Both the position numbers and the translations under genes were made by a program. Under the pieces are notes generated by a model, which saw nothing but the letters and a program-made list of their open reading frames with translations, had not been told where the DNA came from and searched no databases. A stretch of 64,000 nt of DNA from Parcubacteria group bacterium (lineage in GTDB: Bacteria > Patescibacteriota > Minisyncoccia > Phycocordibacterales > WO2-35-19), in assembly GCA_012514175.1 (NCBI GenBank), contig JAAZAU010000008.1, forward strand, positions 977-64,976, given 5' to 3'. Of this stretch, positions 11,215 through 64,000 are shown in pieces. How positions within the stretch are numbered: the stretch's first letter is position 1; each line of letters starts with the position of its first letter.

Positions 11215-11430
11215 ATACGATATAAGATTATTAATAAATTGATTAATAAAACTAAAAACCAAAATTATACACTAATAACTTATATTATATACTTTTTAAA
11301 ATACATTGTCAACAACACAATTTATAGACAATGACCACAAAAAACGTCCAAAAATAGACTTAAATTGGGTGTTTTCTTTCGGGGTTGCCGAGCGGAGCGA
11401 GGCGATTCATTCAGCGATTTTGGAAATAGG

Positions 11431-12209: not shown

Positions 12210-12674
12210 CTATTCTATTATAGGATAAGCAGAAAGAGTTTTCTGCATTTCCTCAAGAATCCTAATAACCTCAGAGGAACCGTTGGTTGCTTCTGTAGTT
12301 GCCTTCAGTTTAGCCACACTGTCCAACGTCTGTTGGTATGTATGACCAAACTTTTTGGCGTTACGCTCTTCATACTCCAAACACTTTTTCAGTTTGTCTA
12401 GAGTGGCAATGAGATTATCTGACGCACAATCAGACAACGTCAAGCCAAGACCTTCAAGTGTAGACACCATCTCCCGCACAGTTATACCGCCGGGGAAAAA
12501 TCCTTCCAAAGCTTCAATCATTGAATCTTTTGGTTTTGAGGCTTTGGAAGCTGAAAACCACTTATCCTCTATTTTTATGAGAACATTATATGCGTGAGGA
12601 TAAGAATATTCGCTTCGGCGACTCAAAAACAACTCTCCGTCACCAACAAAATGAGACGGTGGTTCTGTTTTCAT
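12210..12674 (-). CDS. Hypothetical protein, paralog 1 of a duplicated pair
   Basis: Start set at MKTEPP, preceded by SD aagggagga. Shares the core ...KWF(S/A)AS...MIEAL...GLTLSDCASD.L..TLDKLKKCLEYEERNAKK with 13255-13710. No known domain recognised. Confidence 0.6.
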   Translation of the reverse strand: MKTEPPSHFVGDGELFLSRRSEYSYPHAYNVLIKIEDKWFSASKASKPKDSMIEALEGFFPGGITVREMVSTLEGLGLTLSDCASDNLIATLDKLKKCLEYEERNAKKFGHTYQQTLDSVAKLKATTEATNGSSEVIRILEEMQKTLSAYPIIE

Positions 12675-12751
12675 AACATCCTCCCTTACCATCAGTGTGG
12701 TTATATTGCAGTTTATAAAAGAACTGACAACCTGCATTACTATACATTCAT

Positions 12752-12783
12752 TAAATTTTTTGTCGAGCATTTTTTGTGGTATT
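12752..12783 (-). promoter_or_regulatory. Conserved about-30-nt leader motif (ctcgacaaaaaatttaatgaatgtatagt) upstream of paralog 1
   Basis: Near-identical copies lie upstream of paralog 2 (13771-13798). A partial copy lies at 18734-18752 at the edge of repeat B. The motif is non-coding once SD-supported starts are used. Confidence 0.45.
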
Positions 12784-12869
12784 GCAAACATCATCTAATA
12801 AAACAAAAGAAATTAACCCGTTTGACTCGCAAGTTCAAATATGCTGTCATATTAAGCAGGAGGTGTAGG

Positions 12870-13254: not shown

Positions 13255-13710
13255 CTACAAATTACGAGACTTTACTGGATAAACCGAAAGAGTTTTTTGC
13301 ATCTCGTCTAGCAACTCAATGATTTCCGTAGGACCGCCTATGGCCGCTTCTTTCAATTTAACGAGATGAAACAGGATTAGTCGGTGCACATAACCGACTT
13401 TTTTAGCGTTACGTTCTTCATACTCCAGACACTTTTTTAATTTGTCCAAAGTGTCTGAAAGATCATCTGACGCGCAATCAGACAACGTTAAGCCCAGAGC
13501 GCAAAGCCCGCGTTCCAAAGAACAAATAGAACGACCGTAAGCTTCAACCAAGGCTTCAATCATTGAAACTTTTGGTTCGGAGCAATAGCTAGCCGCGAAC
13601 CACTTGTCCCCCATTTTGATAATAAAGGGAACATGAAATGAATAAAAAGGCCAAGACGTAGTCCTGCTACCTAAAAACAGTTGGCCGTCACCAGCATATC
13701 GTGTTTTCAT
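13255..13710 (-). CDS. Hypothetical protein, paralog 2 of a duplicated pair
   Basis: Start set at MKTRYAGDG, preceded by SD aaggagg. About 50% amino-acid identity to paralog 1, with a near-identical nucleotide stretch across the LTLSDCASD...EYEERNAKK core. Confidence 0.6.
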   Translation of the reverse strand: MKTRYAGDGQLFLGSRTTSWPFYSFHVPFIIKMGDKWFAASYCSEPKVSMIEALVEAYGRSICSLERGLCALGLTLSDCASDDLSDTLDKLKKCLEYEERNAKKVGYVHRLILFHLVKLKEAAIGGPTEIIELLDEMQKTLSVYPVKSRNL

Positions 13711-13779
13711 ATTGCCTCCTTGTGCCACTGGCACCGCATTGGAATTGTGTAAAAGAACTAATACCTTGCACTATACATT

Positions 13780-14523: not shown

Positions 14524-14603
14524 AGTCATCACAGAATCAACACTCCAACCCCTGCGCCGTAACAGACGCAGGGGTTTCCTTTCATTTGTTAAAGGAGAAA
14601 ACC

Positions 14604-16133
14604 ATGACAGATCTACATAACGCTTTGTATTGGTTCCTGTCGCGAACAAACCAGATCACTTGGAGAGCAAAACAATTTTACGCTTCTTGTTTTCTGCAAG
14701 TTTTCCGCAGAAATGGATTGGTGGCGCTTGTTCACCAACTTCACCCGGAACCAGTATATGTTTCGGAACGCACCTGGGCTGATATTCCCAAGAAAGTTAT
14801 CACGGGAACACCATCTGGAAAAATGGACGATCTTGTCCAAGAGCTTATCTCTCGCAAGGTATTCATCAGCAATCCCAACACCGATCTGCAAGAATTAAAT
14901 AATGCGCGTAAACGCACTTTGCAGATGATTAATCGTCCGACCATCCTATATCTTATGATGGCTCAAGGTTGCAACTTTGCTTGCAACTATTGTCCCATTC
15001 CAGATCTCGCCAAACAATATGGTGAGCACCTGTTATCTTTTGAAGATGCTATCGCTGGTATTAAACTCTGGCGGAAGCACATAGAAGAACAGCCACAAGA
15101 TAATAGTCCATACTTTCTAATCTTTTACGGGGGTGAGCCCTTGTTAAATCGGGAAGTGTTGGAAAAGTTACTGCCCCACATAGCCAAGGAAAAAAATGCT
15201 GGACATCTTCCTGCAAAGCTCGAACTTATGCTTTGTACCAATGGGTCTTTGGTGGACGCTGAACTTTCAAAGTTGCTAGCCCGTTACAAGGTTGTGGTAG
15301 CAATAGGTATAGATGGTCCGCAGAAACACAACGATCTCGTTCGTACAACCACCAGTGGCAGTTCTACTTTTACAAGGATCGAGCATTCGGTGAGACAACT
15401 TGTGAGCGATGGTGTTCGTGTCGTGGCCTCAGTGACTATCACTCCAGCAAATGTCAATGAAATTGATCAGTATCCACGCTTTTTGCAAAAACTAGGTTTC
15501 TCTCAATTTGGTTTTAACCTGATGAAGGGAAAAGTTTTGGTACAGCAGCTTGCCGGACAAAGCATGGAAAACTATTGTCGTGCTGCGGTTCGAGGTGTTT
15601 TGCAAGGGCTCGAAGACATTACTGCAGAGGGACAATGTTACGAGTATCAACTGGAAAAAAAATTGGTCGCTGTACGCAACGGTCTACCGTTTTCAGTTGA
15701 TTGCACTTGTTACGGTAATCAGTTGGTTATTCAAGCAGATGGACAGGTAAGCAACTGTCCATTTCTCCGATTCGACCAAGGACAAGTTAGGGAACTTCCT
15801 GATTCATTCAGGATTAGACAGACCAAAGCAGTAGAGACGTGGAGGCGCCGCCTGCCAATTCTCAATGCTTCAGTTAAAGTTGATGGCCACAAAGATATAT
15901 TCAGCGGTGGTGGATGTGCCCGAAGTTCTTTTGACCTCTATGGTGATATTGAAGCCGAAGACACCGCAAATACTATCTTCACAAAGGAGATAACACATGA
16001 ACTCATCTGGACACTCCTGCCTGGAGAACAAGCCAATGCTATTCGCCAAGAAAAAACCACTCATTGGAGTTATCGGCGGGTCAGGAATCTGTCAGTTACC
16101 GGAACTTGTGATTTCCGAAAACGTCGAAACTAA
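14604..16133 (+). CDS. Radical SAM enzyme with C-terminal SPASM/twitch auxiliary-cluster domain (peptide-modifying or anSME-like maturase)
   Basis: SD aaaggag, ATG 14604 (track start 14586 is TTG). Radical SAM motif CNFACNYCP (CxxxCxxC). C-terminal Cys pattern CTCYG...NCPF...GGGC. About 110-aa N-terminal extension before the core. Confidence 0.85.
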   Translation: MTDLHNALYWFLSRTNQITWRAKQFYASCFLQVFRRNGLVALVHQLHPEPVYVSERTWADIPKKVITGTPSGKMDDLVQELISRKVFISNPNTDLQELNNARKRTLQMINRPTILYLMMAQGCNFACNYCPIPDLAKQYGEHLLSFEDAIAGIKLWRKHIEEQPQDNSPYFLIFYGGEPLLNREVLEKLLPHIAKEKNAGHLPAKLELMLCTNGSLVDAELSKLLARYKVVVAIGIDGPQKHNDLVRTTTSGSSTFTRIEHSVRQLVSDGVRVVASVTITPANVNEIDQYPRFLQKLGFSQFGFNLMKGKVLVQQLAGQSMENYCRAAVRGVLQGLEDITAEGQCYEYQLEKKLVAVRNGLPFSVDCTCYGNQLVIQADGQVSNCPFLRFDQGQVRELPDSFRIRQTKAVETWRRRLPILNASVKVDGHKDIFSGGGCARSSFDLYGDIEAEDTANTIFTKEITHELIWTLLPGEQANAIRQEKTTHWSYRRVRNLSVTGTCDFRKRRN

Positions 16134-16875
16134 AACTCCTTACGGCAAACCATCCGGAATCATCAGAGTGGGAGAACTGTGCGGCGAAAGAGTTGCTTTC
16201 TTGCCAAGACATGGCGAGGATCATACCATTCCACCTCACAAAGTACCATACAAAGCAAACCTCTCTGCTCTGAAATCAATCGGTGTGCGACACGTAATCG
16301 CCACCTGTGTTGTCGGAAGCTTGCGGAAAGAAATTAGACCTGGTGCGTTTGTTGTCCCGGATCAGTTCATAAACTTTACGTGGGGCCGAGATGACACCTA
16401 CAGAGTTGATCGTCAACTCGTTCACTTACAGATGGCAGAATCATACTGCGAGCATGTACGAAACATTATCTCTCGCGAAATTAAAGCGATGAACGTTAAC
16501 TACCGGATCAAAGGTACAGTAGTTGTTATACAAGGTCCGAGATTTTCTACCGTCGCTGAAAGCAAGATGTTTGCACTTTGGGGAGGAGACATAGTAAATA
16601 TGACTCAATACCCAGAGTGCTTCTTCGCTCGCGAGCTCGGCATATGTTATGGGGTTGTCGCCACAGTAACCGATTACGATGTTGGTGTGCCAAGCTTGAT
16701 TTCAATGCGGACTGAATCCGTGGATGCAGTTCTGAAGGTATTCCACCGCAACACAAAGGCAACCCTATCACTGATTCAAAGGCTCGCTAGTGCCTCCAAA
16801 GAAATAACTGACTGCGTATGCGCAACCAATCGAATTGCCGAGTATTACAAATTGGCAAACATTGATAGTTCTTAA
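16036..16875 (+). CDS. mtnP: 5'-methylthioadenosine/purine nucleoside phosphorylase (MTAP/PNP family)
   Basis: Strong colinearity with MTAP: IGVIGGSG, FLPRHG..HTIPPHKV, VGSLR, VPDQFI, GPRFST.AES, GGDIVNMT.YPE. The ATG at 16036 overlaps the rSAM gene 3' end by about 98 nt. Confidence 0.85.
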   Translation: MLFAKKKPLIGVIGGSGICQLPELVISENVETKTPYGKPSGIIRVGELCGERVAFLPRHGEDHTIPPHKVPYKANLSALKSIGVRHVIATCVVGSLRKEIRPGAFVVPDQFINFTWGRDDTYRVDRQLVHLQMAESYCEHVRNIISREIKAMNVNYRIKGTVVVIQGPRFSTVAESKMFALWGGDIVNMTQYPECFFARELGICYGVVATVTDYDVGVPSLISMRTESVDAVLKVFHRNTKATLSLIQRLASASKEITDCVCATNRIAEYYKLANIDSS

Positions 16876-16912
16876 TGACCCTCGTGTTTTTGACACGAGG
16901 GTCATCTTTTTT
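16876..16912 (+). terminator. Rho-independent terminator after MTAP gene
   Basis: gaccctcgtg-tttttga-cacgagggtc followed by tcttttttc. Confidence 0.75.
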
Positions 16913-16916
16913 CAAA

Positions 16917-16945
16917 TTGACATTATATAAAAATTCTGTTAAATA
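16917..16945 (+). promoter_or_regulatory. Putative sigma70-type promoter of the ABC-F gene
   Basis: TTGACA at 16917-16922, 17-nt spacer, TAAATA at 16940-16945. A roughly 90-nt leader follows, containing a 5-codon uORF (ATG 17001-TAA 17018). Confidence 0.45.
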
Positions 16946-17036
16946 CAATAAGAGTCCTGGTGTTTCTAACATCAAGAAACGGTACTTTGACGTTTCCTGG
17001 ATGAAGAATCTAGGATAAAATAGGAGAAATATAGAT

Positions 17037-18677
17037 ATGGAGATAAAAGCGGATAAAATTCACAAAGCCTACGGCACCATTACCATACTCGATGATGTGT
17101 CCTTCTCTTTAGAGAAAGGTCAGAAAGTTGGTTTGGTGGGGTACAATGGCACTGGCAAAACTACGCTCCTTAAAATCATTGCTGGTGTTATTGAACCGGA
17201 TGGCGGAAAAATCAGTATCCGCAGAGGAGCGAAACTTGGTTACATGCCACAAGATACAAGCTTGGTCTCAGACGAGACCGTGAGCGACTATTTATGGTGC
17301 GTTTCCGGCATGAAAGAGTTGGAACAACGCATAGATGAGTCATTGGAAGCGTTGACTGATTACGAAAACAGAAACGGTTACGCATTCGATTATCGCATGG
17401 AGATGACCCTTGCAGGTTTCGGTTTGCAAAACATATCTAACAGAAATATCAATTCCCTTTCGTCTGGGCAAAAAAGCAAAGTGTTCATGGCTGGAGTCTT
17501 ACTTTCCGATCCGGATATTTTGGTGCTTGACGAGCCGACTAATAATCTCGATCTTCCAGCTCTGATCTGGCTTGAGAATTTCTTGATGCGTTGCGAGACC
17601 ACCTGTCTTATGGTTTCGCATGACCGCCTCTTCCTTGATCGGATAGTCAGAAAGATTTTTGAGATAGACTGGAACACCAGAAAACTCATAATTACGAACG
17701 GCAGATACTCAGATTATTTGGAGAGAAAGGAGAAAGAAACATCAAGACAACTCGCTGAACATAAAGCTCAGCAGGAAGAAATAAAAAGATTGACCGATCA
17801 AGCCAGGAAGAAAAAAGCTGAAGCGGTTCAAGGTTCTCGATATGTCGGCACGGACAATGACAAGTTTCTGCGCGGATTCAAACGTGACAGAGCTGCTAAG
17901 TCCGGGAAAACGGCGAAAGCAATCGAGAAACGCATTGAACAGATGGATGTGCTTGAAAAACCTGTTGAACGTGATGCTTTTCGTATCCACCTACAACCAA
18001 CCAAACCCGAAGGGTCGCGAGATATCAACTTGAAGGATGTGGTCGCCGGATATTCTGCTGATGGATTCCGTGTTGGTCCAATTTCTGCCCACATGTCATA
18101 CGGATCACGTACTCTAATTCTCGGTCTCAATGGATCGGGTAAATCCACTTTGCTTAAAACTCTAAGTGGAGAGCTTGACCTTATCAGTGGCGAAGTTACA
18201 GTTGGAAATGCCCTGGTTGTAGGAAATCTAACTCAAGAACACAACAACTTACCCCGAGAAGAAAGCATAAAAAACTTTCTAATAAGACGAGCTGGGGTTG
18301 AAGTTCAGATTGCTTACGCACTTGCTGTTAAATTTGGTTTCAAGGCCGAAGAAATAGACAAAGAAATTTCGTCTTTGTCTCCCGGTGGTAGGGCCAGACT
18401 GTTGTTTGCTTTATTTTCTGCCCTGTCGGTAAACGTCCTGTTGTTAGATGAGCCGACGAACCACCTGGATCTTGAAGCGCTCCAAGCGCTTGAAGAAGCT
18501 GTTTCGCAATACGAGGGCACTATCATTCTCGTATCGCATGATCGCCATTTCCTTGAAAAGTTCAAAGCTACCGATACCTATGTTCTTTTGGACGGAAAGC
18601 TTGAGCGTCAGCAAAGCTTCAGTCTGTACATGAAGAATGCTGAACATGAAGCAAAACGTCTAATCAGTATGTTATAG
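17037..18677 (+). CDS. ABC-F family ATPase (two tandem ABC domains, no TMD; EttA/ARE-type translation factor)
   Basis: NBD1: GYNGTGKTTLLK, LSSGQKSKV, ILVLDEPTNNLD. Charged helical linker. NBD2: GLNGSGKSTLLK, LSPGGRARL, VLLLDEPTNHLD. 546 aa. Confidence 0.9.
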   Translation: MEIKADKIHKAYGTITILDDVSFSLEKGQKVGLVGYNGTGKTTLLKIIAGVIEPDGGKISIRRGAKLGYMPQDTSLVSDETVSDYLWCVSGMKELEQRIDESLEALTDYENRNGYAFDYRMEMTLAGFGLQNISNRNINSLSSGQKSKVFMAGVLLSDPDILVLDEPTNNLDLPALIWLENFLMRCETTCLMVSHDRLFLDRIVRKIFEIDWNTRKLIITNGRYSDYLERKEKETSRQLAEHKAQQEEIKRLTDQARKKKAEAVQGSRYVGTDNDKFLRGFKRDRAAKSGKTAKAIEKRIEQMDVLEKPVERDAFRIHLQPTKPEGSRDINLKDVVAGYSADGFRVGPISAHMSYGSRTLILGLNGSGKSTLLKTLSGELDLISGEVTVGNALVVGNLTQEHNNLPREESIKNFLIRRAGVEVQIAYALAVKFGFKAEEIDKEISSLSPGGRARLLFALFSALSVNVLLLDEPTNHLDLEALQALEEAVSQYEGTIILVSHDRHFLEKFKATDTYVLLDGKLERQQSFSLYMKNAEHEAKRLISML

Positions 18678-55500: not shown

Positions 55501-56352
55501 TTAATTAAAAATATTGATAAGATAAGAATCTATCGTGCGCTGATCTAAATCATAAAAATATTCTCCATCTTCATAAAGTCTTTTGGCTAGACCCTTGCCT
55601 ACAAAACGCCAATGCCAAGGTTCAAATTGATAATAATTGTTACCTTCTGGGTAAGAAATAACAAAACCATATTTATAAGCGTTACTCAAAAGCCAATCAT
55701 ACGCTGAACTACTTTTAAAATTGTCAAAATTGGCTCCTAATTCAGGAGTAGTAAAATCAATTGTCGTTCCTAATTGATGTTCGGAGAATCCTTGATCAGC
55801 AGAAAATTGATTAGCACCGCTTCCATAAGTAACCAAATAAGCATTTTTTAAAGCCCCCTGTTCACCAAACGAACGAAATCCAGAAATTATTTTCAAATTA
55901 ATACCATTTCTTTTGGCAGACACCAACATTTCTTGAAGATAAGGAAAAGCTTTCGTGTGAAATTTGATTTTCTTACCTTCTTCATAAACATAATCAGGCG
56001 GAATATTTACTAAATCTTCAGGTATATAATTTTCATTCAAAAAATAGACTTTGGAATATTTTTGTAAAAGTTCTTTGTCGGTTTTAGATAATATGTCTAG
56101 TTTGCCAACTGTGCCGGCGATTTGTTTAATCTGACTTGCAAATTCACTATTTTTTTGTTGCTCTTTATAAAGAGCATCGGCTAAAAACATATTTTGATCT
56201 TCTAAATCTGAAATTTTTGCCTCCAAAGCAATAGCATTCTGAGCTACTTCTTTTTGAAATAAATAATAAAAATAACCCAAAACTACAAGCTCTGCGAGCA
56301 ACACCACAAGCAACACAAACGAGATTATTTTTTTATTAAAACGCCCTTCCAT
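55501..56352 (-). CDS. D-alanyl-D-alanine carboxypeptidase, VanY / peptidase M15B family
   Basis: N-terminal TM. SGFRS...Q, SEHQLGTTIDF, EPWHWRFVG motifs. Confidence 0.8.
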   Translation of the reverse strand: MEGRFNKKIISFVLLVVLLAELVVLGYFYYLFQKEVAQNAIALEAKISDLEDQNMFLADALYKEQQKNSEFASQIKQIAGTVGKLDILSKTDKELLQKYSKVYFLNENYIPEDLVNIPPDYVYEEGKKIKFHTKAFPYLQEMLVSAKRNGINLKIISGFRSFGEQGALKNAYLVTYGSGANQFSADQGFSEHQLGTTIDFTTPELGANFDNFKSSSAYDWLLSNAYKYGFVISYPEGNNYYQFEPWHWRFVGKGLAKRLYEDGEYFYDLDQRTIDSYLINIFN

Positions 56353-56382
56353 AGAGTAATTTTATCACAGAAATGGAAAAAG

Positions 56383-56409
56383 GGGGCAAGACCCGAAGGT
56401 CTGCCCCCA
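56383..56409 (-). terminator. Hairpin terminator closing the GC-rich operon
   Basis: gggggcaagacc-cgaa-ggtctgccccc. The T-run follows on the minus strand. Confidence 0.6.
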
Positions 56410-56634
56410 TAATGCACTAAGTGCGTCTCTTAATCGCTATTGATTTGATTAATTTTCCAAAACATCTTTAGGTTTTGTAAACGCTCATTGAGCGGTCAGT
56501 TAATCTAACTGACAAGGATATCATCCCTTTTCAACACTGATCCAGTGTTGCACAAAACAAAAATTGTTTGGGAAAATTTCACTATTTCCAAAAACGATTA
56601 AGAGAAAGAACAATCCAGTCCCCTGAATTAAAAA

Positions 56635-57303
56635 CTAAATGGGGACTTCAAAATAACAGTAGGAAGCGTTGGCGACAAAATCACCACCATCCCCTACCAT
56701 TTGAGCCTGAAAGACAGATTGAGATTCTGTCTCTGAGACTCCGATTATTCTCTCTGGAGTGGAGGAGAAATTCCCCTCCTCATCCTTCAAGAATTCGTGG
56801 ACGAAAAGGTTACCCTCTTCGTCCTCCGCCAGGATGGGCGCGAGTTTGTCAACCACCGCCACCCGAACCTCTCCGCCAAACTTCCAGTCAATATAACCGG
56901 CTCGTTTGGCGATATTTGTCGCTTGTGCCTCAGCCCACTGAGTCACAGCGACCATGTCAGTCACATCACCCTCAAACCGATACTTCTTAAAAGTTTGGGG
57001 TGAGGCAAGCAACTGTTTGGTGAAGGAACTTACGTAACCTCCACCAAGACCAATGGTTGCCACTGACAACCTCTCGGTCTTTGTAACCCCCGTTTCCGTT
57101 TTTGCAACAACGGGAGTCACCGGGCCGGTAGCGGTAACTTCTGTTGAGACTTCCATTCTGGTGGAAGCCTCCGCTGTCACCACCAAAAGCTGTTTTCTCA
57201 GCTGGTGGTTCTGGACGGCAACCGTCACAACCATTGCTACCATAACAATGTTGGCAACGGCGCGCGTCCAGATTTTCATCCGAGACAAAAAACTTGCTCT
57301 CAT
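56635..57303 (-). CDS. Hypothetical exported protein (GC-rich island)
   Basis: N-terminal hydrophobic anchor. No recognised domain. The fourth gene of a co-directional GC-rich cluster. Confidence 0.5.
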   Translation of the reverse strand: MRASFLSRMKIWTRAVANIVMVAMVVTVAVQNHQLRKQLLVVTAEASTRMEVSTEVTATGPVTPVVAKTETGVTKTERLSVATIGLGGGYVSSFTKQLLASPQTFKKYRFEGDVTDMVAVTQWAEAQATNIAKRAGYIDWKFGGEVRVAVVDKLAPILAEDEEGNLFVHEFLKDEEGNFSSTPERIIGVSETESQSVFQAQMVGDGGDFVANASYCYFEVPI

Positions 57304-58205
57304 CTCCCTCCTCCCTCAAAAAAAATTGTTTCTTTCCTATCTCTATCGGCCATTTTAAAAAAAATAGGCCGATAATAAGTGCTTCGCTTTTCACCAACGA
57401 AGCACCTTTTTAGATTCCTGACAATCTCTTTCGGACTGTTTCCGTGCACAGTCTTCCAAACAGTGCTCTTGGAAACGTCCATCAGAGGAATGGGAGAGAG
57501 CCAAACCCCATTGGTGTCTTTTCTGACCTCAACCAAATATCGGAGGTCCTTTTCCGCATCAGACACCTGGATAAATTGCTTTTCTCCCTTGGAAACAAAA
57601 GGGAAATTTAATATATCCTTCCTGTTTCCGTTTATTTTTTTTGGAGGGTCGTTGCGGACAATGAGCCTACTAAAAAAATAGACTCCCAGCCCGACAACCA
57701 AAACCCAGAGAAAGACCACTCCCCATTTGTTCCTCACGGACATCTGGGACATCTGGGGCATCTGAGGAGGCGCCTCTGCTTCTGCCTCTGCCACCAAAGT
57801 GCAAATCACTCTGATGGCTCTGTTATTTCCCGCATCACCAACTGTCCTGGTGGTGATGTTGTTCGGAGGAATAACAGCGAGCTTCTCGCTGATGAAGGCT
57901 TTAGCTTGCAATGCCCTCCTGTCTCCGAGGTCTTGGTTCAGATTTCGGCTTCCCGTGGTGTCGGTGTAGCCGATAACGGAAATCCGAATCTGCTCTTCTC
58001 CAACTTTTTTTTGGAGAAGTTTTTGGATCGGAGAGATAACCCTCCTTTCCAAATTTTTGGACACTTCGCCACCGTCCACGATAGCGAATTGCCCAACCTC
58101 AAATCCAACAACAACCTCATCAATTATGGTTTCGGTTTTTGGAGCCGAAACCAAACTCATTGACGAAAAAGAAAAAAATGCGAACAACCAGAAAAATTTT
58201 TTCAT
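57300..58205 (-). CDS. OmpA/MotB-like domain protein with internal TM segment
   Basis: Signal peptide MKKFFWLFAFFSF. OmpA-C-like segment ISVIGYTDTTGSRNLNQDLGDRRALQAKAF. Internal TM VVFLWVLVVGLGVYFF. ATG 58205. Confidence 0.6.
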   Translation of the reverse strand: MKKFFWLFAFFSFSSMSLVSAPKTETIIDEVVVGFEVGQFAIVDGGEVSKNLERRVISPIQKLLQKKVGEEQIRISVIGYTDTTGSRNLNQDLGDRRALQAKAFISEKLAVIPPNNITTRTVGDAGNNRAIRVICTLVAEAEAEAPPQMPQMSQMSVRNKWGVVFLWVLVVGLGVYFFSRLIVRNDPPKKINGNRKDILNFPFVSKGEKQFIQVSDAEKDLRYLVEVRKDTNGVWLSPIPLMDVSKSTVWKTVHGNSPKEIVRNLKRCFVGEKRSTYYRPIFFKMADRDRKETIFFEGGGR

Positions 58206-58308
58206 CTCTCCCCCCCCTTGCCCATCGGGCAAAAAAGTCTACCGCACTGATCCAGCACAGTAGATAAAAGAAGTTTCTGGAGGGCCCCACAGGAGCCCCC
58301 CAGGAGAA

Positions 58309-59607
58309 TTATTCACCAGCAGATGATTGCCCAACAACACGGACAATCACCCTCCGATCCTGAGGATTGTGTTCGGAGCGGGATTTGTCCTCGCTTAGCG
58401 AGACAAATTGCTTCATATTCTCTGCCCCGAACTCAACCAGCTGGTTATAAACCTTCTTGGCGCGACTTCGCGCCAAGACCGCATTATATTCCGGCGACCC
58501 CGCAGAGCAGGCGTGTCCCTCCACTTGTAGAAGGCACGCGCTTTTGCTGCGCTCTGCGAAGTTTTTGATCTCTGACAAGTATTCCGACTTTATGTCGGAC
58601 TTGTCGAAATCAAAAAAAACTTCAAGTGGAGGCAGATTGCATTCCTCCACTGACTCCCGAACCGCGACAGGTTCCGCCACCGCTTGGGCAACGGTGGGAG
58701 TCGGTAGGGGTTGAGGTTCTGGCTTGCTCATATTTGCTATGAGCGCCTTAGCCACCTCTTCCCAAGGGTTGACTTCCGGCTCCGCCGGTTGCGAAGGGGC
58801 CGAAACGATTTCCACTTCCTTTTCAGGAGGCGGTTTCGGTCCTTCAATTGGCCCGTCATTCATACAGTAAAAACTGTATTCGGGCCAATCTTCTGGGGAG
58901 GTTATTGATGTTCCTTTGCCATAACCCAAGGCAGAGCCAAGGGCTACGTCATTGGAACCGTTCACGCTAGCCCCTCCCAAACTCAAACCTTTGATGCTGG
59001 TTTGAGTTTTGGAAGCCATAATAACCTTCCCGAACATAGCAACCCGGTTGGCGCCGGTTTGCTTCTTGCACTCTTTGGCACCTTCAGCCTGGAATCGGCT
59101 TTCGGGCCAAAGAGGCAACCCTTTGACGGTGACCTCGCCCAGGATTTGGTCTTGGATGACCGCATCCTGGATAAAGGCCAGCTTGCCGGGGTTGTAGTCC
59201 ATAAATTCTACAAACCCCTTGTCCTTTACCTTTCCTTTCTGGTATCGGACAAAGAAGACTCTCTTTTCCCTGGCCAAATGTTTTACAGGGAAAAGAATGT
59301 CGGACAAGCCGACCCCGTCTCCCTTTGCCATTTGGTTGATCTGTTCAACAGACCAACGTTTTGCCAAAGGGACACTTTGGCTTTCCTTACTCATCCCAGA
59401 ACTCCCAGGTCCTGGAATGACGTAAGTGGAAGGTCCCGCCGGCATTGCCGGCGAAAACTGCCTTGGGATCCCACCGCCCCCACTACTACTACCGGGATTA
59501 TTGTAAATAATCGCGGTAGCTTCGCTAGTGGCACTTGCCAACGGATCTGCTTCTTGAGCAAATCCAAACGTTGGCAAAAGAAGCAAAACACTGAAAATCT
59601 TTTTCAT
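58309..59607 (-). CDS. OmpA-family protein (signal peptide, Gly/Pro-rich linker, C-terminal OmpA-like peptidoglycan-associating domain)
   Basis: Signal peptide plus AQEA. C-terminus: FFDFDKSDIKSEY...VEGHACSAGSPEYNAVLARSRAKKV...RRVIV. Confidence 0.7.
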   Translation of the reverse strand: MKKIFSVLLLLPTFGFAQEADPLASATSEATAIIYNNPGSSSGGGGIPRQFSPAMPAGPSTYVIPGPGSSGMSKESQSVPLAKRWSVEQINQMAKGDGVGLSDILFPVKHLAREKRVFFVRYQKGKVKDKGFVEFMDYNPGKLAFIQDAVIQDQILGEVTVKGLPLWPESRFQAEGAKECKKQTGANRVAMFGKVIMASKTQTSIKGLSLGGASVNGSNDVALGSALGYGKGTSITSPEDWPEYSFYCMNDGPIEGPKPPPEKEVEIVSAPSQPAEPEVNPWEEVAKALIANMSKPEPQPLPTPTVAQAVAEPVAVRESVEECNLPPLEVFFDFDKSDIKSEYLSEIKNFAERSKSACLLQVEGHACSAGSPEYNAVLARSRAKKVYNQLVEFGAENMKQFVSLSEDKSRSEHNPQDRRVIVRVVGQSSAGE

Positions 59608-59661
59608 TGGATCCTCCCTTTCTGGGAGCGACGGTTTTTACCGTCGCCCCCAAACATTAGG

Positions 59662-60504
59662 TTAATCGCAAACAGAGCCTCCGCAGGCCCCGCCGTTGAC
59701 GACGGAACTGGAGGCATTGTGGGCTCCAGCGGACATAAAGTCCGCGCCCAAATTAATGAAGGAATCCCCCACACTCTGCAGGGATCCCGAAAGGGGCCCC
59801 GCGTCACTGGCTTTGTAATTGGCAAAGCCATTGAAACCAGCGACGCCAGAAAAATTTTGGTCAGCTCCTCCCATCTGAATCCAGGAGCCAACCGCACCGA
59901 CTCCCTCCACAAAGGAGGTAGTTCCGCCGGCCGTGTTGGGGGTTACTATGGCAAAGGATGAATCCTTTGTCATAGCATTCGCCTTCTTGGAAACGGCGTC
60001 CCCCGAAAGCGATACGGCTGTATTGCCATTGGCACCAGCCTTGCCGCTATCACTCACAGAGCCGGTTCCGGAGATAAAGTTTCCATAACCGGCGAGGGTA
60101 TTCCCCCAGCCGCTAGAAAACTCATCCCCCCTGTTGATAGAAGCCTCGTTAAACTGATTAACGAGACCCTCCGCCCCAACCTCGGCCTTGGTTGTTCCCT
60201 TAGCCCACGATTGAAACTCGTTGTAGGCTTTGGAAAACGACGATGCCGAGTCGGCACCCTGATGGCTAGCCCCAGTGGACCAACCATTGTTCAGGGTGTC
60301 TCCAGAGGCATCACAAGGACCCTCGGAGTTGAAAAATGAGAACGACACCTCGCTGGCAATGCCGCCAGTAAATTCGTTCCCATGCTCCCAGGATGTCTCC
60401 TGGAAAGCGTTCCCGGACGCCTGCTGGGTAGGAGCGGCCTCCTGAGCCAGAGCCATCCCCCCAGCGAACACTCCTAAAAACAGGCAAAACAACAAATTTC
60501 TCAT
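59662..60504 (-). CDS. Secreted Gly/Ser/Ala/Asn-rich protein
   Basis: Signal peptide (ALA-QEA). Low-complexity G/S/N-rich sequence with recurring (N/S)GW motifs. C-terminal CGGSVCD. Strong SD aaggagg. Confidence 0.55.
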   Translation of the reverse strand: MRNLLFCLFLGVFAGGMALAQEAAPTQQASGNAFQETSWEHGNEFTGGIASEVSFSFFNSEGPCDASGDTLNNGWSTGASHQGADSASSFSKAYNEFQSWAKGTTKAEVGAEGLVNQFNEASINRGDEFSSGWGNTLAGYGNFISGTGSVSDSGKAGANGNTAVSLSGDAVSKKANAMTKDSSFAIVTPNTAGGTTSFVEGVGAVGSWIQMGGADQNFSGVAGFNGFANYKASDAGPLSGSLQSVGDSFINLGADFMSAGAHNASSSVVNGGACGGSVCD

Positions 60505-60649
60505 TTTTCTTTCCTCCTTTTTTCTTTTTTGTTGGTTTGTGCTAGTTTTAAAAAACCAAAACTAGCACCAAAAAGCGCGTAATGTCAAAGGACACTTACG
60601 CGCTAGTGATACCATATTTTGGATAAAATTGCAAGTCCTAACTCGTGTT

Positions 60650-60919
60650 TTAATCTTTTTTACTTACCCGCTTACTTTTCTTTGTTGGAGGAGGAGAAAA
60701 AAGCCTAAAGAGTAAATTATTTTCTAGCTTTTCTTTTAGGTCTTCTATGAACTCTTCAGAGCCGATTCTAACAGTATTTTTAATCACTCTGGTGATAGCT
60801 TGAAGATTTCTGCTAGCCTTGATCAAATTAATTAGAACTATAGAAAAAAGAATTGTCAATATGATAGTAGCTATTGACGCTATGAAAAAAAAGATTTCTG
60901 ATTTCATCAGTGGTTCCAT
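60650..60919 (-). CDS. Small membrane protein
   Basis: 89 aa, one N-terminal TM, charged C-terminus. Confidence 0.35.
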   Translation of the reverse strand: MEPLMKSEIFFFIASIATIILTILFSIVLINLIKASRNLQAITRVIKNTVRIGSEEFIEDLKEKLENNLLFRLFSPPPTKKSKRVSKKD

Positions 60920-61563: not shown

Positions 61564-61637
61564 TGCAAAGTATTCCGCGGTGGCGCAGCGGTAGCGCAGT
61601 CGCCTGTTAAGCGATTGGTCGTAGGTTCGAATCCTAC
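61564..61637 (+). tRNA. tRNA-Asn (anticodon GUU)
   Basis: Acceptor UCCGCGG/CCGCGGA (U1:A72 as in E. coli tRNA-Asn). D-stem GCGC/GCGC. Anticodon stem GUCGC/GCGAU with loop CUGUUAA. T-arm GUAGG-UUCGAAU-CCUAC. Confidence 0.8.
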
Positions 61638-63130
61638 CCGCGGAGCAAAGTAGGATGGTTAGACGCTTTTGCGATGCAAGAAAACGGTTCTCGCATTGTA
61701 AATACTGGCTTTTTACCATCAACAACAGAGTTCTGAAGTAGAAACTTCATAAACTGATTTTTTTCAGCTACTTCCGAACTTTCAAATATCTCTTCAGCTT
61801 TTTGAGCTATATTCAGTACCGTTTTAGCAACGATATGGTAGTTTTCGTCTGCTTGTGTAAGCTCATCTTTTTGGATGCCTAAATCGTACTGCTGTTCCTT
61901 GTACTCTTTTAGTTTTGCGTCATATATGTCCTTAGTAATACTACCGTCAGCAAGCAAGTCAAAAGACCTGCTTATTCTGTTTTGGATTTCATCGTACTTC
62001 TGATTGATTTCTTTTATTTTCTTCGTGTGGTACAGAGCCTGATTTTCGTGGTTCTTTTTGAGATACGTTACAAGCTGAGCTATCTGCTCGTCATCCAGTT
62101 TTATTTGCCCCAAAAATCGCTTTATAGGCTTTAGAAGCACCTCTTCCTTCACATACTCTCGCTTGCAGTTTTTCTTCCCATTTGAACAACTGTAATAGAT
62201 ATATTTGCCTTTCTTCAGCTCTGCACTCATTGAGCATCCACATCTCGCACACTTCAGAAGTCCACTAAATATAAACTCCTTTCTTCCAGTGGTTTTTATT
62301 GGATTACTGTTCTTCTTTTCTAATTCATCCTGAACCTTAAGAAACAGCTTCTTAGTAATAAGTGGCTGGTATCTATGTTCGTAGTACTCATCATATTTCT
62401 TAGAATATGCCATTCCATAGTAGAAAGTGTTTTTGAGAATGTTGTGAATAACACTTTGATACAAAGGTTTGCCGTGTGCTGTTTTTATCTTTCTTTTAGA
62501 CATTTCATCAGCCAACTTCCGGCAAGAGTAATTACCTGTTGAGTATTTTTCAAAAAGCTCAACAACAATATGGCTCATCTCAGGATGCGGAATAATATCC
62601 TTTCTAAGGCGCTTATTCTCGTCCAGAGGCACATTTTTATAGCCAAATGGTATTCCGCCTATCCATTCGCCTTTCTTGCGTTTCTGCTCAAAAGCTCGTT
62701 TTACATTGTCGCTGATAGCATCGGAATAGTACTTTGCTAAACCTAAACTCATTCCAAATTGAAATTTCTCAACTGCGGACATTTTGGAGTTTATGATTTG
62801 TCCATCCGAGACAAAATGAAGCTCAATTTCATCAGCAACCGCTTTTTCATAAAGTAGTGATACTCTCTTATCAAAAACATTTCTTGAAAGCCTATCTACC
62901 TTGTCAAAACAAATCGCAACCTTCCCTTTACTTTCTTTCAGGTACTCTAAAACCCTGTCAAACTCATCTCGCTTAACTTTGTAGGCACTTTCATCAAAGC
63001 TGAAGGTTTCGTCTATTTTGAAATCCTTTCTCTTACAGTAGTCCTCAATACGCCTAATTTGAGCTGGTAGCGAGTTACCGGCATCCTTTTGCTCTTCTGT
63101 TGATACTCTGGCTAATATTACTGCTTTCAT
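61634..63130 (-). CDS. Large serine recombinase (resolvase-domain integrase)
   Basis: N-terminal resolvase domain with the catalytic Ser in ARVSTEEQ, plus DRLSR. Recombinase domain and Cys-rich zinc ribbon CARCGCS...YYSCSNGKKNC. Coiled-coil C-terminus. The 3' end abuts or overlaps the tRNA-Asn 3' end. Confidence 0.9.
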   Translation of the reverse strand: MKAVILARVSTEEQKDAGNSLPAQIRRIEDYCKRKDFKIDETFSFDESAYKVKRDEFDRVLEYLKESKGKVAICFDKVDRLSRNVFDKRVSLLYEKAVADEIELHFVSDGQIINSKMSAVEKFQFGMSLGLAKYYSDAISDNVKRAFEQKRKKGEWIGGIPFGYKNVPLDENKRLRKDIIPHPEMSHIVVELFEKYSTGNYSCRKLADEMSKRKIKTAHGKPLYQSVIHNILKNTFYYGMAYSKKYDEYYEHRYQPLITKKLFLKVQDELEKKNSNPIKTTGRKEFIFSGLLKCARCGCSMSAELKKGKYIYYSCSNGKKNCKREYVKEEVLLKPIKRFLGQIKLDDEQIAQLVTYLKKNHENQALYHTKKIKEINQKYDEIQNRISRSFDLLADGSITKDIYDAKLKEYKEQQYDLGIQKDELTQADENYHIVAKTVLNIAQKAEEIFESSEVAEKNQFMKFLLQNSVVDGKKPVFTMREPFSCIAKASNHPTLLRG

Positions 63131-63133
63131 ACG

Positions 63134-64000
63134 CTAACTTATAAGCTTATCGTAAGCTTCAGTAAATTCTTTAGTGTCCTTTTTATTGAACAGTGGTAAG
63201 CCAATCAAGCTATAATCCTTGCCCTCTATTTTTAGGATTTTATTATCGGAATATTTCTCAGTAATCTTTTTAAGGAAATCATTCTTCCATTTATCAGCAT
63301 CCAAAAGGTTATCTCCTTTCGGTTCAATGAAAATCTGATAGTAGAGCTTTGATTTATCTTTTAGGAAAAGGATAAAGTCAGGCTGGAAACCCTGTCCGGT
63401 AGTGAAGTCATATATCTTGTACTGCTCTTCATTTCTTAACAGATACACCTCTTTATATTTACCTTGCAGATTGACTATAGTTTCTTGTATAAACTCAATC
63501 AGCCCTTTTTCCTCACTTGTTCCATAAAACTGGTCTAATACATACCAGTCCTGATATTTAAGTTCATCTTCAATTCGCTTACTTTCCTCATCTTTTTTCA
63601 CACTCTTTCTAACCTCTTCGTCAAAAAACTCTTGCAACTTGTACGCACTAAACTCAGTACCAATATGCGGATTGATGTTCTGCTTAAGCTCAATAAGCAA
63701 GGTGTCAAAAAACTTCACTAATACATCAAGCTTCTCTTTATTGCTTACTTCATCAATGCTCTTTTTGGTGGTAACAAGTTTGATTTCAAAATCTCCTACA
63801 ATCTTTTCTCTGAAATCCTCAATACTTTTTATTTGTAGCTCTTCCTTCAGTAGCTCAAACCTCAGCAAAGACTTATCGCTCTTTGCCTTTATGTTTATAG
63901 CTTTTTGGAAGATATGTTTTTCAAAATCTTTTACCTTTACTGGAATAGTTTTCTTGTTTTGTTCGTTTATATTCAAGCGTTCTGTATCAGCGTCATCGCT
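63134..64000 (-). CDS. Hypothetical protein (5'-partial; frame open to window end)
   Basis: Long minus-strand ORF immediately upstream of the recombinase. No recognised motif. Confidence 0.4.
   Translation of the reverse strand, partial: SDDADTERLNINEQNKKTIPVKVKDFEKHIFQKAINIKAKSDKSLLRFELLKEELQIKSIEDFREKIVGDFEIKLVTTKKSIDEVSNKEKLDVLVKFFDTLLIELKQNINPHIGTEFSAYKLQEFFDEEVRKSVKKDEESKRIEDELKYQDWYVLDQFYGTSEEKGLIEFIQETIVNLQGKYKEVYLLRNEEQYKIYDFTTGQGFQPDFILFLKDKSKLYYQIFIEPKGDNLLDADKWKNDFLKKITEKYSDNKILKIEGKDYSLIGLPLFNKKDTKEFTEAYDKLIS

Follow-up and report, generated by a model that had tools for sequence, protein, structure and literature searches.

A four-gene Parcubacteria envelope operon with a candidate structured 3' RNA, probably of GC-richer Parcubacteria origin

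Four co-directional genes, P1 to P4, occupy positions 56635-60504 on the minus strand of a 64,000-nucleotide stretch of contig JAAZAU010000008.1 from a Parcubacteria group bacterium (assembly GCA_012514175.1). This whole stretch is called the window below, positions are counted from its first letter, and the genes and RNA elements of the operon all lie on the same strand. Our reading, which we hold at a probability of about 0.6, is that the locus represents a lineage-typical envelope operon of Parcubacteria, members of the candidate phyla radiation (CPR), that it has its own structured RNA, and that its GC content was derived from a GC-richer Parcubacteria donor. No description of the operon or its RNA was found in the literature.

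Composition and proteins of the operon

The open reading frames (ORFs) of the window bore out the operon of four genes that a first-pass annotation had proposed. GC content of 56635-60504 was 0.509, versus 0.363 in the rest of the window; the annotation had rightly noted raised GC, but its figure of about 55% was slightly high for the operon as a whole (50.9%) and was reached by P1 only (0.55). Within the low-GC window, a block of 0.48-0.52 GC spanned 57-60 kb, and a finer-scale scan located the GC steps at the two ends of the coding sequences, ~56.65 kb and ~60.5 kb. GC at third codon positions (GC3) was 0.50-0.60 in P1 to P4, versus 0.22-0.29 in VanY, HPF, fmt, g89, PKcyc, priA, and mreB. 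The codon shift was seen across all codon families, with C- and G-ending codons both increased (C plus G at fourfold-degenerate sites, 0.54 in the operon versus 0.28; G in A/G-ending twofold families, 0.51 versus 0.17). Compositional analysis, which the annotation had proposed, thus revealed GC3 and codon usage foreign to the host genome, and in both base composition and codon usage the operon is as atypical as expected of a mobile island. A long antisense ORF (59002-59961, plus strand, 319 amino acids [aa]) spans the P1/P2 junction; it is what chance would be expected to give in GC-rich DNA, and like the annotation we regard it as spurious.

In P2 (58309-59607, 432 aa), a signal peptide is followed by an N-terminal domain (N-domain, residues ~46-262), which a Pro-rich linker joins to an OmpA-like domain at the C-terminus (residues 331-418). 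The signal peptide and OmpA-like domain had been predicted, and the latter was confirmed by a match to Pfam OmpA (PF00691) over residues 331-418 (E value of 2e-10; 41.3 bits, gathering cutoff of 27.2). OmpA-C-like domains have an alpha/beta fold of the order beta-alpha-beta-alpha-beta-beta, and a conserved Asp and Arg bind the diaminopimelate of peptidoglycan, as seen in structures of Acinetobacter baumannii OmpA and of Pal. In an AlphaFold2 (AF2) model, residues ~325-425 of P2 adopted such a fold at a predicted local distance difference test score (pLDDT) of ~89-98, and the modelled domain superposed on Pal (5n2c, 4b5c), OprF, and OmpA C-domains (Foldseek E value of ~1e-7, target template modelling [TM] score of 0.75). 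In the P2 motif GHACSAGSPEYNAVLARSRA, the Arg is kept, and Cys occupies the position of the canonical diaminopimelate-binding Asp (GHACS versus GHTD); the family consensus at this position is GHTC. None of the cutoffs of the NCBIfam equivalogs for Pal, OmpA, MotB, and YiaD was reached, the best score being 40.9 bits versus a cutoff of 125 (Pal) and the others lying far below their own cutoffs.

A word-indexed search with P2 returned six proteins only; a HMMER scan with the N-domain returned 129 representative clusters among 1.84e9 proteins, mostly of 400-480 aa. Pfam OmpA was found on 48 of 80 scanned family members, and the only other Pfam match on these 80 was a GRP match at chance level, so that no Pfam family covers the N-domain. 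When an 80-sequence profile was scanned for further homologues, OmpA words dominated and no new relatives emerged. The AF2 model of the N-domain (pLDDT of 83, predicted TM score of 0.75) consists of an alpha/beta core and a long beta-hairpin, the strands of which are model residues 143-167 and 180-204, ~25 residues each. At the hairpin centre, large hydrophobic residues alternate with Gly, Ser, Thr, or Ala across the family, giving an amphipathic pattern. Judged by these searches, the N-domain appears to define a small uncharacterised family without a Pfam or significant PDB match, which would be the first of two novelties of the locus.

P1 (59662-60504, 280 aa) has a signal peptide, followed by a Gly/Ser/Asn/Ala-rich (also Thr-rich) secreted protein ending in CGGSVCD, in line with the annotated Gly/Ser/Asn-rich secreted protein with this terminus. 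The closer relatives have the CxxxxC of its C-terminal CxxxxC(D/E/Q) in common, and several glycines are invariant across the P1 family. By its sequence, P1 is a candidate abundant surface subunit. Homologues with 23-75% identity are encoded directly upstream of P2 homologues in six contigs (L043, L008, L044, L006, L045, and L046), and in a seventh, L048, a 289-aa gene takes the P1 position.

P3 is encoded by an ORF at 57300-58232, in which the likely start is the ATG at 58205 (MKKFFW), yielding a protein of 301 aa (57300-58205). A signal peptide and an extracytoplasmic OmpA-like domain are followed by a single transmembrane helix, WGVVFLWVLVVGLGVYFF, and by a small cytoplasmic domain that is conserved. 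The annotated combination of an N-terminal OmpA-like domain and an internal transmembrane segment was therefore substantiated, Pfam OmpA matching residues 63-133 with an E value of 5e-7 and 30.4 bits (cutoff of 27.2). As read directly from the motif GYTDTTG...NQDLGDRRA, both the Asp and the Arg of the peptidoglycan pocket are kept. In L044 and L045, P3 is 141-152 aa long and lacks the OmpA-like part while retaining the transmembrane helix and the cytoplasmic domain. Across lineages, the OmpA-like ectodomain of P3 thus seems optional, and the predicted transmembrane and cytoplasmic parts constant.

The P3 stop codon overlaps the start of P4 by 4 nucleotides (nt). P4 (56635-57303, 222 aa) was annotated as an exported unknown, which agrees with its N-terminal membrane anchor, its conserved extracytoplasmic domain, and its lack of a known family. 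Neither P1 nor P4 belongs to a family in Pfam, NCBIfam, PHROG, or PADLOC. The P1 family profile did not match any PDB sequence, and comparison of P1, P4, and the P3 C-terminal domain with PDB sequence profiles gave nothing significant (best, 6xi3 with an E value of 0.008 and 5bxg with 0.05). For all operon proteins, the generic OmpA/MotB domain was the sole match in PHROGs and PADLOC, and searches of INPHARED and IMG/VR revealed no phage or viral relatives, so these searches did not place the operon in a phage or defence system.

Conservation of the cassette and origin of its GC excess

A public collection lists the exact P2 protein in 40 of its blocks, and 22 contigs from ENA, JGI, and Logan assemblies were read, the longest of 442 kb. 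The locus was present and 100% identical in at least these 22 contigs: all six of its proteins were 100% identical in L001-L004, the window was identical to L003 over 15.7 kb, and L005 was an error-laden copy. At NCBI, the proteins of the locus are NLE07194-NLE07198. Two other species share the site. In L043, the order is g89, P1, P2 (broken), P3, P4, RNA, and VanY, with identities of 84% for g89, 74% for P1, 71-77% for P2, 58% for P3, and 54% for P4; in L047, it is P4 (62%), RNA, and VanY (83%). The annotation had proposed to check for presence or absence of an island in related genomes; the operon was found in all contigs read and at the same site in L043 and L047, and this lack of polymorphism does not support an island.

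Two details of L043 are noted here. Its P2 orthologue (GCA_964459755.1, 7929-9035) is split, with tblastn pieces corresponding to residues 1-171 and 277-432 and only a 142-aa OmpA gene called, due to either a pseudogene or an assembly error. The gene g89 (60650-60919 in the window, 6606-6875 in L043), just upstream of the operon, codes for a small membrane protein of host-like GC with a weak holin-like PHROG match (E value of 0.004).

More distant relatives carry the same cassette. The order in L044 is Aminotran_5, P1, P2, a short P3, P4, and RNA, followed further on by PKcyc, RsgA, tRNA-Asn, VanY, HPF, fmt, and def, with the operon within ~3.5 kb of the VanY-HPF-fmt-def block. There, P1, P2, and P4 are 31-33% identical to those of the window, versus 55-74% for flanking proteins (PKcyc, 74%; VanY, 66%; def, 71%). 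L008 has Aminotran_5, P1, P2, P3, P4 (~33% identical, as in L044), and RNA. L048 has P1, P2, P3, and P4, the last a partial gene with an identical 4-nt overlap, and L045, L046, and L051 have a P1-like gene, P2, and a third gene, which was confirmed as P3-like in L045 and L046. Between L044 and L008, Aminotran_5 is 65% identical versus 30-40% for the operon proteins; since this flank-to-operon ratio is the same as that between the window and L044, the cassette simply evolves fast.

The fetched contigs that carry the cassette, Parcubacteria-like and of 38-56% GC, all resemble small CPR genomes. When GTDB representative genomes (a set without the source species) were scanned, P2 matched only OmpA domains, at 26-41% identity, in Acidobacteriota, Burkholderiales, Flavobacterium, and others, and scans of metagenome contigs by protein alignment and by a degenerate motif gave no match. 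The BLAST-type search for a donor lineage suggested by the annotation accordingly yielded none, P2 relatives outside CPR-like contexts matching the generic OmpA domain alone. From this distribution, the cassette appears to be phylum-native, as opposed to a foreign function that was inserted recently.

The raised GC was not shared equally by relatives. Operon GC3 exceeded that of the flanks in L043 (0.41-0.49 versus 0.13-0.32) and L047 (0.37 versus 0.27), and by only ~0.06 in L044 (contig GC, 0.38; GC3, 0.35-0.41 versus 0.29-0.37). In the GC-rich L045, L046, and L048 (contig GC, 0.53-0.56; L048 genes, 0.47-0.63), the GC3 ranges of operon and flanks overlapped, and in L008 (0.51) two operon genes lay above the single flank gene seen. 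The annotation had named similar GC at the orthologous locus in every relative as the finding that would speak against acquisition, and this was not what we observed: because the excess of L044 is small and GC-rich relatives have no clear excess, the compositional anomaly is specific to the clade of the window, L043, and L047.

At fourfold sites of identical residues, the window differed from L043 or L047 at a fraction of 0.45-0.46 in VanY and g89 and 0.50-0.62 in operon genes, versus 0.60-0.74 after randomisation. As these sites are not saturated, each lineage would keep about half of the initial excess. An ancestral GC at fourfold sites (GC4) of ~0.6-0.8 would explain the data, and this range matches GC-rich Parcubacteria. 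An initial estimate of synonymous saturation (Nei-Gojobori pS of 0.68-0.75), by which retained GC3 would need selection, was overturned by the fourfold sites at conserved residues. With moderate confidence, these comparisons suggest that the clade ancestor acquired the cassette, or replaced its own, from a GC-richer Parcubacteria lineage. The donor would have had a GC3 of ~0.6-0.75, the transfer would have preceded the split of the window, L043, and L047, and the GC of the operon would have been partially ameliorated afterwards. A GC-richer Parcubacteria donor is preferred to a Gram-negative one because P2 relatives outside match the generic OmpA domain alone. Of the horizontal acquisition originally proposed, the foreign composition at codon level stands and transfer is plausible; a recent insertion of foreign function does not, the cassette being old and phylum-native.

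The main rival explanation dispenses with transfer: either selection maintained high GC, acting on mRNA structure, on expression or stability, or on the codon demands of very highly expressed surface proteins, or the operon lags behind a genome-wide AT drift. We consider this unlikely, though it is the alternative that fares best. A GC3 excess in all four low-GC lineages (~0.28, 0.17, 0.10, and 0.06), a cassette that stays in the same chromosomal neighbourhood, and an operon rich in conserved RNA hairpins are what it would lead one to expect. It accords less well with a shift that affects every codon family, C- and G-ending codons alike, as from a different mutational background, nor would it account for unrelated housekeeping genes (SerRS and MetK, see below) that are equally GC-rich while their neighbours are not. 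Moreover, a 1192-aa surface protein in the window has a GC3 of 0.26, and decay from a GC-rich ancestor is numerically plausible. As would be expected of a copy placed anew, the cassette also has one position in the window clade (g89, operon, VanY) and another in L044 and L008 (Aminotran_5, operon).

Raised GC was also seen outside the operon. In L001 (4894-7479), a contig of the same genome that extends past the integrated element of the window, SerRS (GC3 of 0.63) and an archaeal-type AdoMet synthase (MetK; 0.57) lie beside the low-GC PKcyc (0.28). A second raised-GC block in the window (14586-18677; GC of 0.43-0.45, GC3 of 0.40-0.46) encodes a radical SAM protein, a PNP_UDP_1 phosphorylase, and an ABC-F-type ATPase, and by its composition may be another import. 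The genome is a GC mosaic, housekeeping genes included, and given that SerRS, MetK, and this block are likewise GC-rich, imports from GC-richer relatives seem to be recurrent.

RNA elements of the operon

Conserved cis-elements accompany the genes: a promoter and leader precede P1-P2, hairpins precede P3-P4, and a ~180-nt RNA with a terminator closes the unit. The 282-nt spacer between P4 and VanY (56353-56634) folds at -104 kcal/mol, versus -61.2 ± 4.6 kcal/mol for shuffled sequences (z = -9.2), and the corresponding post-P4 spacers of L008 and L044 fold with z values of -5.8 and -5.6. Fold prediction and comparison delineated a structured 3' RNA at 56426-56605 (~180 nt), in which nested AU-rich closing helices surround four tandem hairpins, H1 (56532-56550), H2 (56514-56528), H3 (56495-56513), and H4 (56482-56494). 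A small hairpin (56414-56424) precedes the intrinsic terminator at 56383-56409, GGGGGCAGACC-UUCG-GGUCUUGCCCCC followed by UUUUU, located 30 nt before the VanY start codon; hairpin and T-run of this annotated terminator were read directly from the sequence. Equivalent terminators follow the element in L043, L047, and L044. Small ORFs within the 3' spacer were rejected as short and unsupported.

L043 and L047 carry the same RNA. The window and L043 have 95% identity over its core, and the substitutions are mostly located in loops or preserve pairing. A covariance model built from two sequences matched directly after the P4 homologues of L008 (E value of 3e-4) and L044 (8e-3). One topology was common to all five lineages: closing helices and four hairpins, then the small hairpin and the intrinsic terminator. 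In an unguided MAFFT alignment of the five sequences, 83.3% of cells were paired, versus 76.4 ± 1.2% in shuffles (reached by 0 of 500) and 36-48% in slid controls, and 20 pairs were changed on both sides, versus 11.4 ± 2.3 in shuffles. The sense strand was more stable than the antisense strand in five of five cases, by 4.5-19 kcal/mol, as expected for an RNA with G-U pairs. Rfam (release 15) recognised only tRNAs in the window, and for 56300-56700 its best score was 18 bits versus gathering scores of 41-166, with nothing beyond noise at E values of ≤10. The element is single-copy in the window. Taken together, the folding and pairing statistics make it a candidate for a previously undescribed folded RNA, the second novelty of the locus.

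The spacer between P2 and P3 is built in a related manner and folds with z = -4.2. Directly after the P2 stop codon, a GC-rich hairpin (58277-58303) followed by a U-rich tract gave a terminator-like match and is a candidate internal attenuator or partial terminator; equivalents were found in L043, L008, L044, L045, L048, and L049. Next come GAU-triloop hairpins (58213-58264), of which 58238-58264 shares CUGGAUCAG with H1 and 58213-58237 (GCCC-GAU-GGGC) abuts the Shine-Dalgarno sequence of P3. At this place, relatives have hairpins whose loops are specific to their own lineages, the spacer design being matched in L043, L008, and L044 and largely in L045, L046, L048, and L049. The loop types of the 3' RNA recur in this spacer; they are repeated within a lineage and differ between lineages, in that the window clade has GAU/AAU, L008 has CCC-ACUU-GGG, and L044 has CC(C)-AUUU-GG(G). 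In the AT-rich window, chance alone yields many RAU-triloop hairpins with short AT stems, and no genome-wide enrichment is claimed; only those with long stems cluster in the operon. Another hairpin, 10 bp long, GC-rich, and with an AAU triloop as in the intergenic hairpins (UUUCGCCGGC-AAU-GCCGGCGGGA, 59434-59456), lies within the P2 coding sequence.

Upstream of P1, the spacer at 60505-60649 folds with z = -3.6. A sigma-70-type promoter was predicted at 60606-60634, with a -35 box TTGCAA (60629-60634), a 17-nt spacer ending in TGG, and a -10 box TATCAC (60606-60611); the arrangement TTGCA(A/T)-17 nt-TAnnAn is also found upstream of P1 in L043, L044, L008, and L048. Downstream of this promoter, a leader hairpin (60576-60602; CGCGTAA...TTACGCG) holds in its loop the motif TGTCCTTTGACA (60583-60594), with the family consensus YTTTGWCAA, which is single-copy in the window and kept in L043, L044, L008, L045, and L048. 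Possible roles of the hairpin are those of an operator, of a leader RNA element, or of a second -35 box. The 5' leader further contains a perfect 11-bp inverted repeat (60539-60568, GTGCTAGTTTT / AAAACTAGCAC), which is absent from the homologous leader of the closest relative, L043, and thus lineage-specific; because it is not conserved, its function is doubtful. The strong Shine-Dalgarno sequence annotated for P1 is GGAGG at 60513-60517.

Every inverted repeat listed in the first-pass annotation was present in the sequence, those at 56482-56494, 56496-56512, and 56532-56550 being H4, H3, and H1. They did not recur elsewhere within the 64-kb window, as they might have at other island borders. 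Their suggested role as recombination scars or island borders gave way to one as conserved parts of the transcript, namely, promoter and leader on one side and 3' RNA and terminator on the other.

Alternatively, the 3' element might be a leader or riboswitch of the downstream VanY (an M15 peptidase), or a mere group of stabilising hairpins that lack a specific function, and not a component of the operon. A terminator that ends 30 nt before the VanY start in L043 and L047 as well as in the window does resemble an aptamer with its expression platform. The element follows P4 also in L044 and L008, however, where in L044 the downstream genes differ, and VanY of L044 is preceded by tRNA-Asn without such an element. 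Its loop motifs are shared with the P2-P3 hairpins inside the operon and vary jointly with these from lineage to lineage, and the 95% identity of the core between the window and L043, compared with a difference of ~0.5 at fourfold sites, is more constraint than mere stabilisation needs. Hence, we regard this alternative as improbable, and treat the element as part of the operon.

Chromosomal setting, proposed function and known systems

A tRNA-Asn (61574-61646) and a large serine recombinase (61634-63130) lie near the operon. In L001, homology to the window ends at 61651, and SerRS stands beside the tRNA with no recombinase (an empty site); in L002, homology ends at 61654, and a different cargo follows (Bro-N, HTH, a DNA methylase, and a recombinase). 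Both breaks fall just beyond the tRNA-Asn 3' end, on the flank that faces away from the operon. The recombinase thus belongs to a separate, strain-variable element integrated at tRNA-Asn. In the window and L003, the recombinase is followed by a type III restriction-enzyme-like ORF (63134-63976; PADLOC REase_III, E value of 2e-21). In L044 (~9048-9120), tRNA-Asn lies directly upstream of VanY, whereas in the window PKcyc, g89, and the whole operon lie in between; the tRNA-Asn/VanY junction looks like a rearrangement hotspot.

That the operon is a recent classical island from a Gram-negative donor, delivered by the serine recombinase and with palindromes as att sites or scars, is very improbable and already contradicted. 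Such an island would fit the strong compositional contrast, the tRNA-Asn and recombinase within ~1.1 kb, and OmpA-like domains typical of diderm bacteria, but homology breaks only after the tRNA-Asn 3' end, and the operon is present in L001 without the recombinase and in L002 with a different element. Integrase or mobility genes were absent from the operon region, flanking direct repeats were not above chance level, and the palindromes are conserved transcript parts in relatives. Relatives outside CPR-like contexts, moreover, match the OmpA domain alone (26-41% identity), and none is phage or viral. An assembly or binning chimera of a GC-rich fragment and a low-GC contig, which the sharp GC steps at both ends might evoke, is refuted by identical junctions in independent ENA, JGI, and Logan assemblies with contigs of up to 442 kb, by the same synteny in L043 and L047, and by GC steps that coincide with coding-sequence ends while conserved low-GC regulatory sequences belong to the cassette.

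Two further loci of the window were noted. ORFs of 194 and 159 aa (12210-12794 and 13255-13734, minus strand) have near-identical C-terminal halves (…GLTLSDCASD.L..TLDKLKKCLEYEERNAKK…), neither has a Pfam family, and they look like a local duplication of an uncharacterised gene. The 1192-aa protein mentioned above (7684-11262, minus strand; GC3 of 0.26, host-like) has weak SpaA-like, DUF11, GH2-N, and PG_binding_1 matches, and is probably another large wall-associated surface protein.

Several points weigh against our overall reading. The functions proposed for the operon all derive from sequence comparison and models, and peptidoglycan binding by P2 is not assured because Cys replaces the canonical Asp. 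A PDB fold search with the P2 N-domain gave insignificant matches only (best E value of 0.012, probability of ≤0.3, TM score of ~0.1), and since the top ones (TraT decamer 9fs5, gamma-hemolysin, CDTb, and perforin-2) fall into this range, the likeness to pore or ring formers is resemblance, not membership. Covariation in the 3' RNA comes from an alignment of five sequences, of which three are close to each other, and this alignment also served to derive the structure. Operon proteins diverge two to three times faster than flanks in every pair compared, so that low identity alone is no proof of replacement. A donor was not found, the closest P2 from outside the clade being only 42% identical; estimates of ancestral GC4 disagree (~0.8 from the window, ~0.6 from L043); and operon GC3 above that of the flanks in every low-GC lineage, including L044, could mean selection for GC.

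As for function, the envelope part of the originally proposed envelope or attachment module is supported by exported and membrane proteins with two OmpA-like domains, while attachment is a conjecture. P1 would be an abundant secreted Gly/Ser/Asn-rich surface subunit, and P2 would be tethered to peptidoglycan through its OmpA-like C-terminus, its amphipathic beta-hairpin of ~25-residue strands possibly oligomerising into a ring or barrel or docking P1. P3 might link peptidoglycan, membrane, and cytoplasm, with P4 as membrane-anchored outer partner, so that P1 to P4 together would make up an assembly that is anchored to the wall and lies at the surface or spans the envelope. The hairpin that follows P2 may set a stoichiometry of P1/P2 in large excess over P3/P4. 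Because its loops match those of the P2-P3 hairpins and both change in step from lineage to lineage, the 3' RNA could act on the mRNA of the operon itself, as a binding platform or a stabiliser, and it and the internal hairpins might be recognition sites for one factor, or stabilisers.

A bolder proposal, to which we assign little probability, is that P2 oligomerises by way of its long, amphipathic, Gly-rich hairpin to form a beta-barrel ring, anchored in the cell's own peptidoglycan and inserting into an unrecognised outer layer or a host membrane, with P1 as surface partner, P3 and P4 as base, and a dedicated RNA-binding factor that controls the operon post-transcriptionally by reading the repeated, lineage-specific loops of the P2-P3 spacer and the 3' RNA. 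If true, the operon would encode a pore or attachment machine of a new, wall-anchored type, together with an RNA class of its own that is likewise new. The envelope and host contact of CPR/Patescibacteria are largely unknown, and the locus offers a concrete, conserved four-protein module to test, in which two domains are predicted to bind peptidoglycan, a new domain bears a pore-like hairpin, and one partner is secreted and Gly/Ser-rich. A candidate for a new structured RNA, showing covariation and repeated loops specific to each lineage, is tied to this module. The locus would also exemplify a codon-level GC anomaly in a CPR genome that arose when lineages of different GC exchanged a native cassette, and not by import of a foreign function, a distinction that matters for the interpretation of islands in metagenome-assembled genomes.

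Among known systems, the closest are OmpA-like peptidoglycan-binding proteins (PF00691: Pal, OmpA C-domain, MotB, YiaD, and YfiB). Both the C-terminus of P2 and the N-terminal part of P3 score above the Pfam cutoff, and P3 keeps the canonical GYTD...N..L....RA motif. In contrast to these proteins, the operon lacks a beta-barrel, a lipobox, and a MotA/TolQ partner, the P2 N-domain is unrelated to any Pfam family, and P2 has GHACS in place of GHTD. An outer membrane is generally considered to be absent from the host phylum. With ring and pore formers (TraT decamer, gamma-hemolysin, CDTb, perforin-2, and, conceptually, CsgG), P2 has in common an alpha/beta core and a very long amphipathic Gly/Ser/Thr-rich beta-hairpin, but its matches are insignificant, its model is that of a monomer, and its cell is presumed monoderm. 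Like CsrB/RsmZ-type sponges, stabilisers resembling repetitive extragenic palindromes, and small RNAs derived from 3' untranslated regions, the 3' RNA consists of tandem hairpins with a repeated loop motif at an mRNA 3' end, followed by an intrinsic terminator; it differs from them by RAU/AYUU instead of GGA loops, by the lack of an Rfam match, by being single-copy, and by its long conserved closing helices. Finally, the operon resembles atypical genomic islands and cases of xenologous replacement in its GC and codon usage unlike the host, its sharp boundaries, and a nearby tRNA, but it lacks an integrase, direct repeats, and presence/absence polymorphism, and it is phylum-native and shared by descent within the clade.

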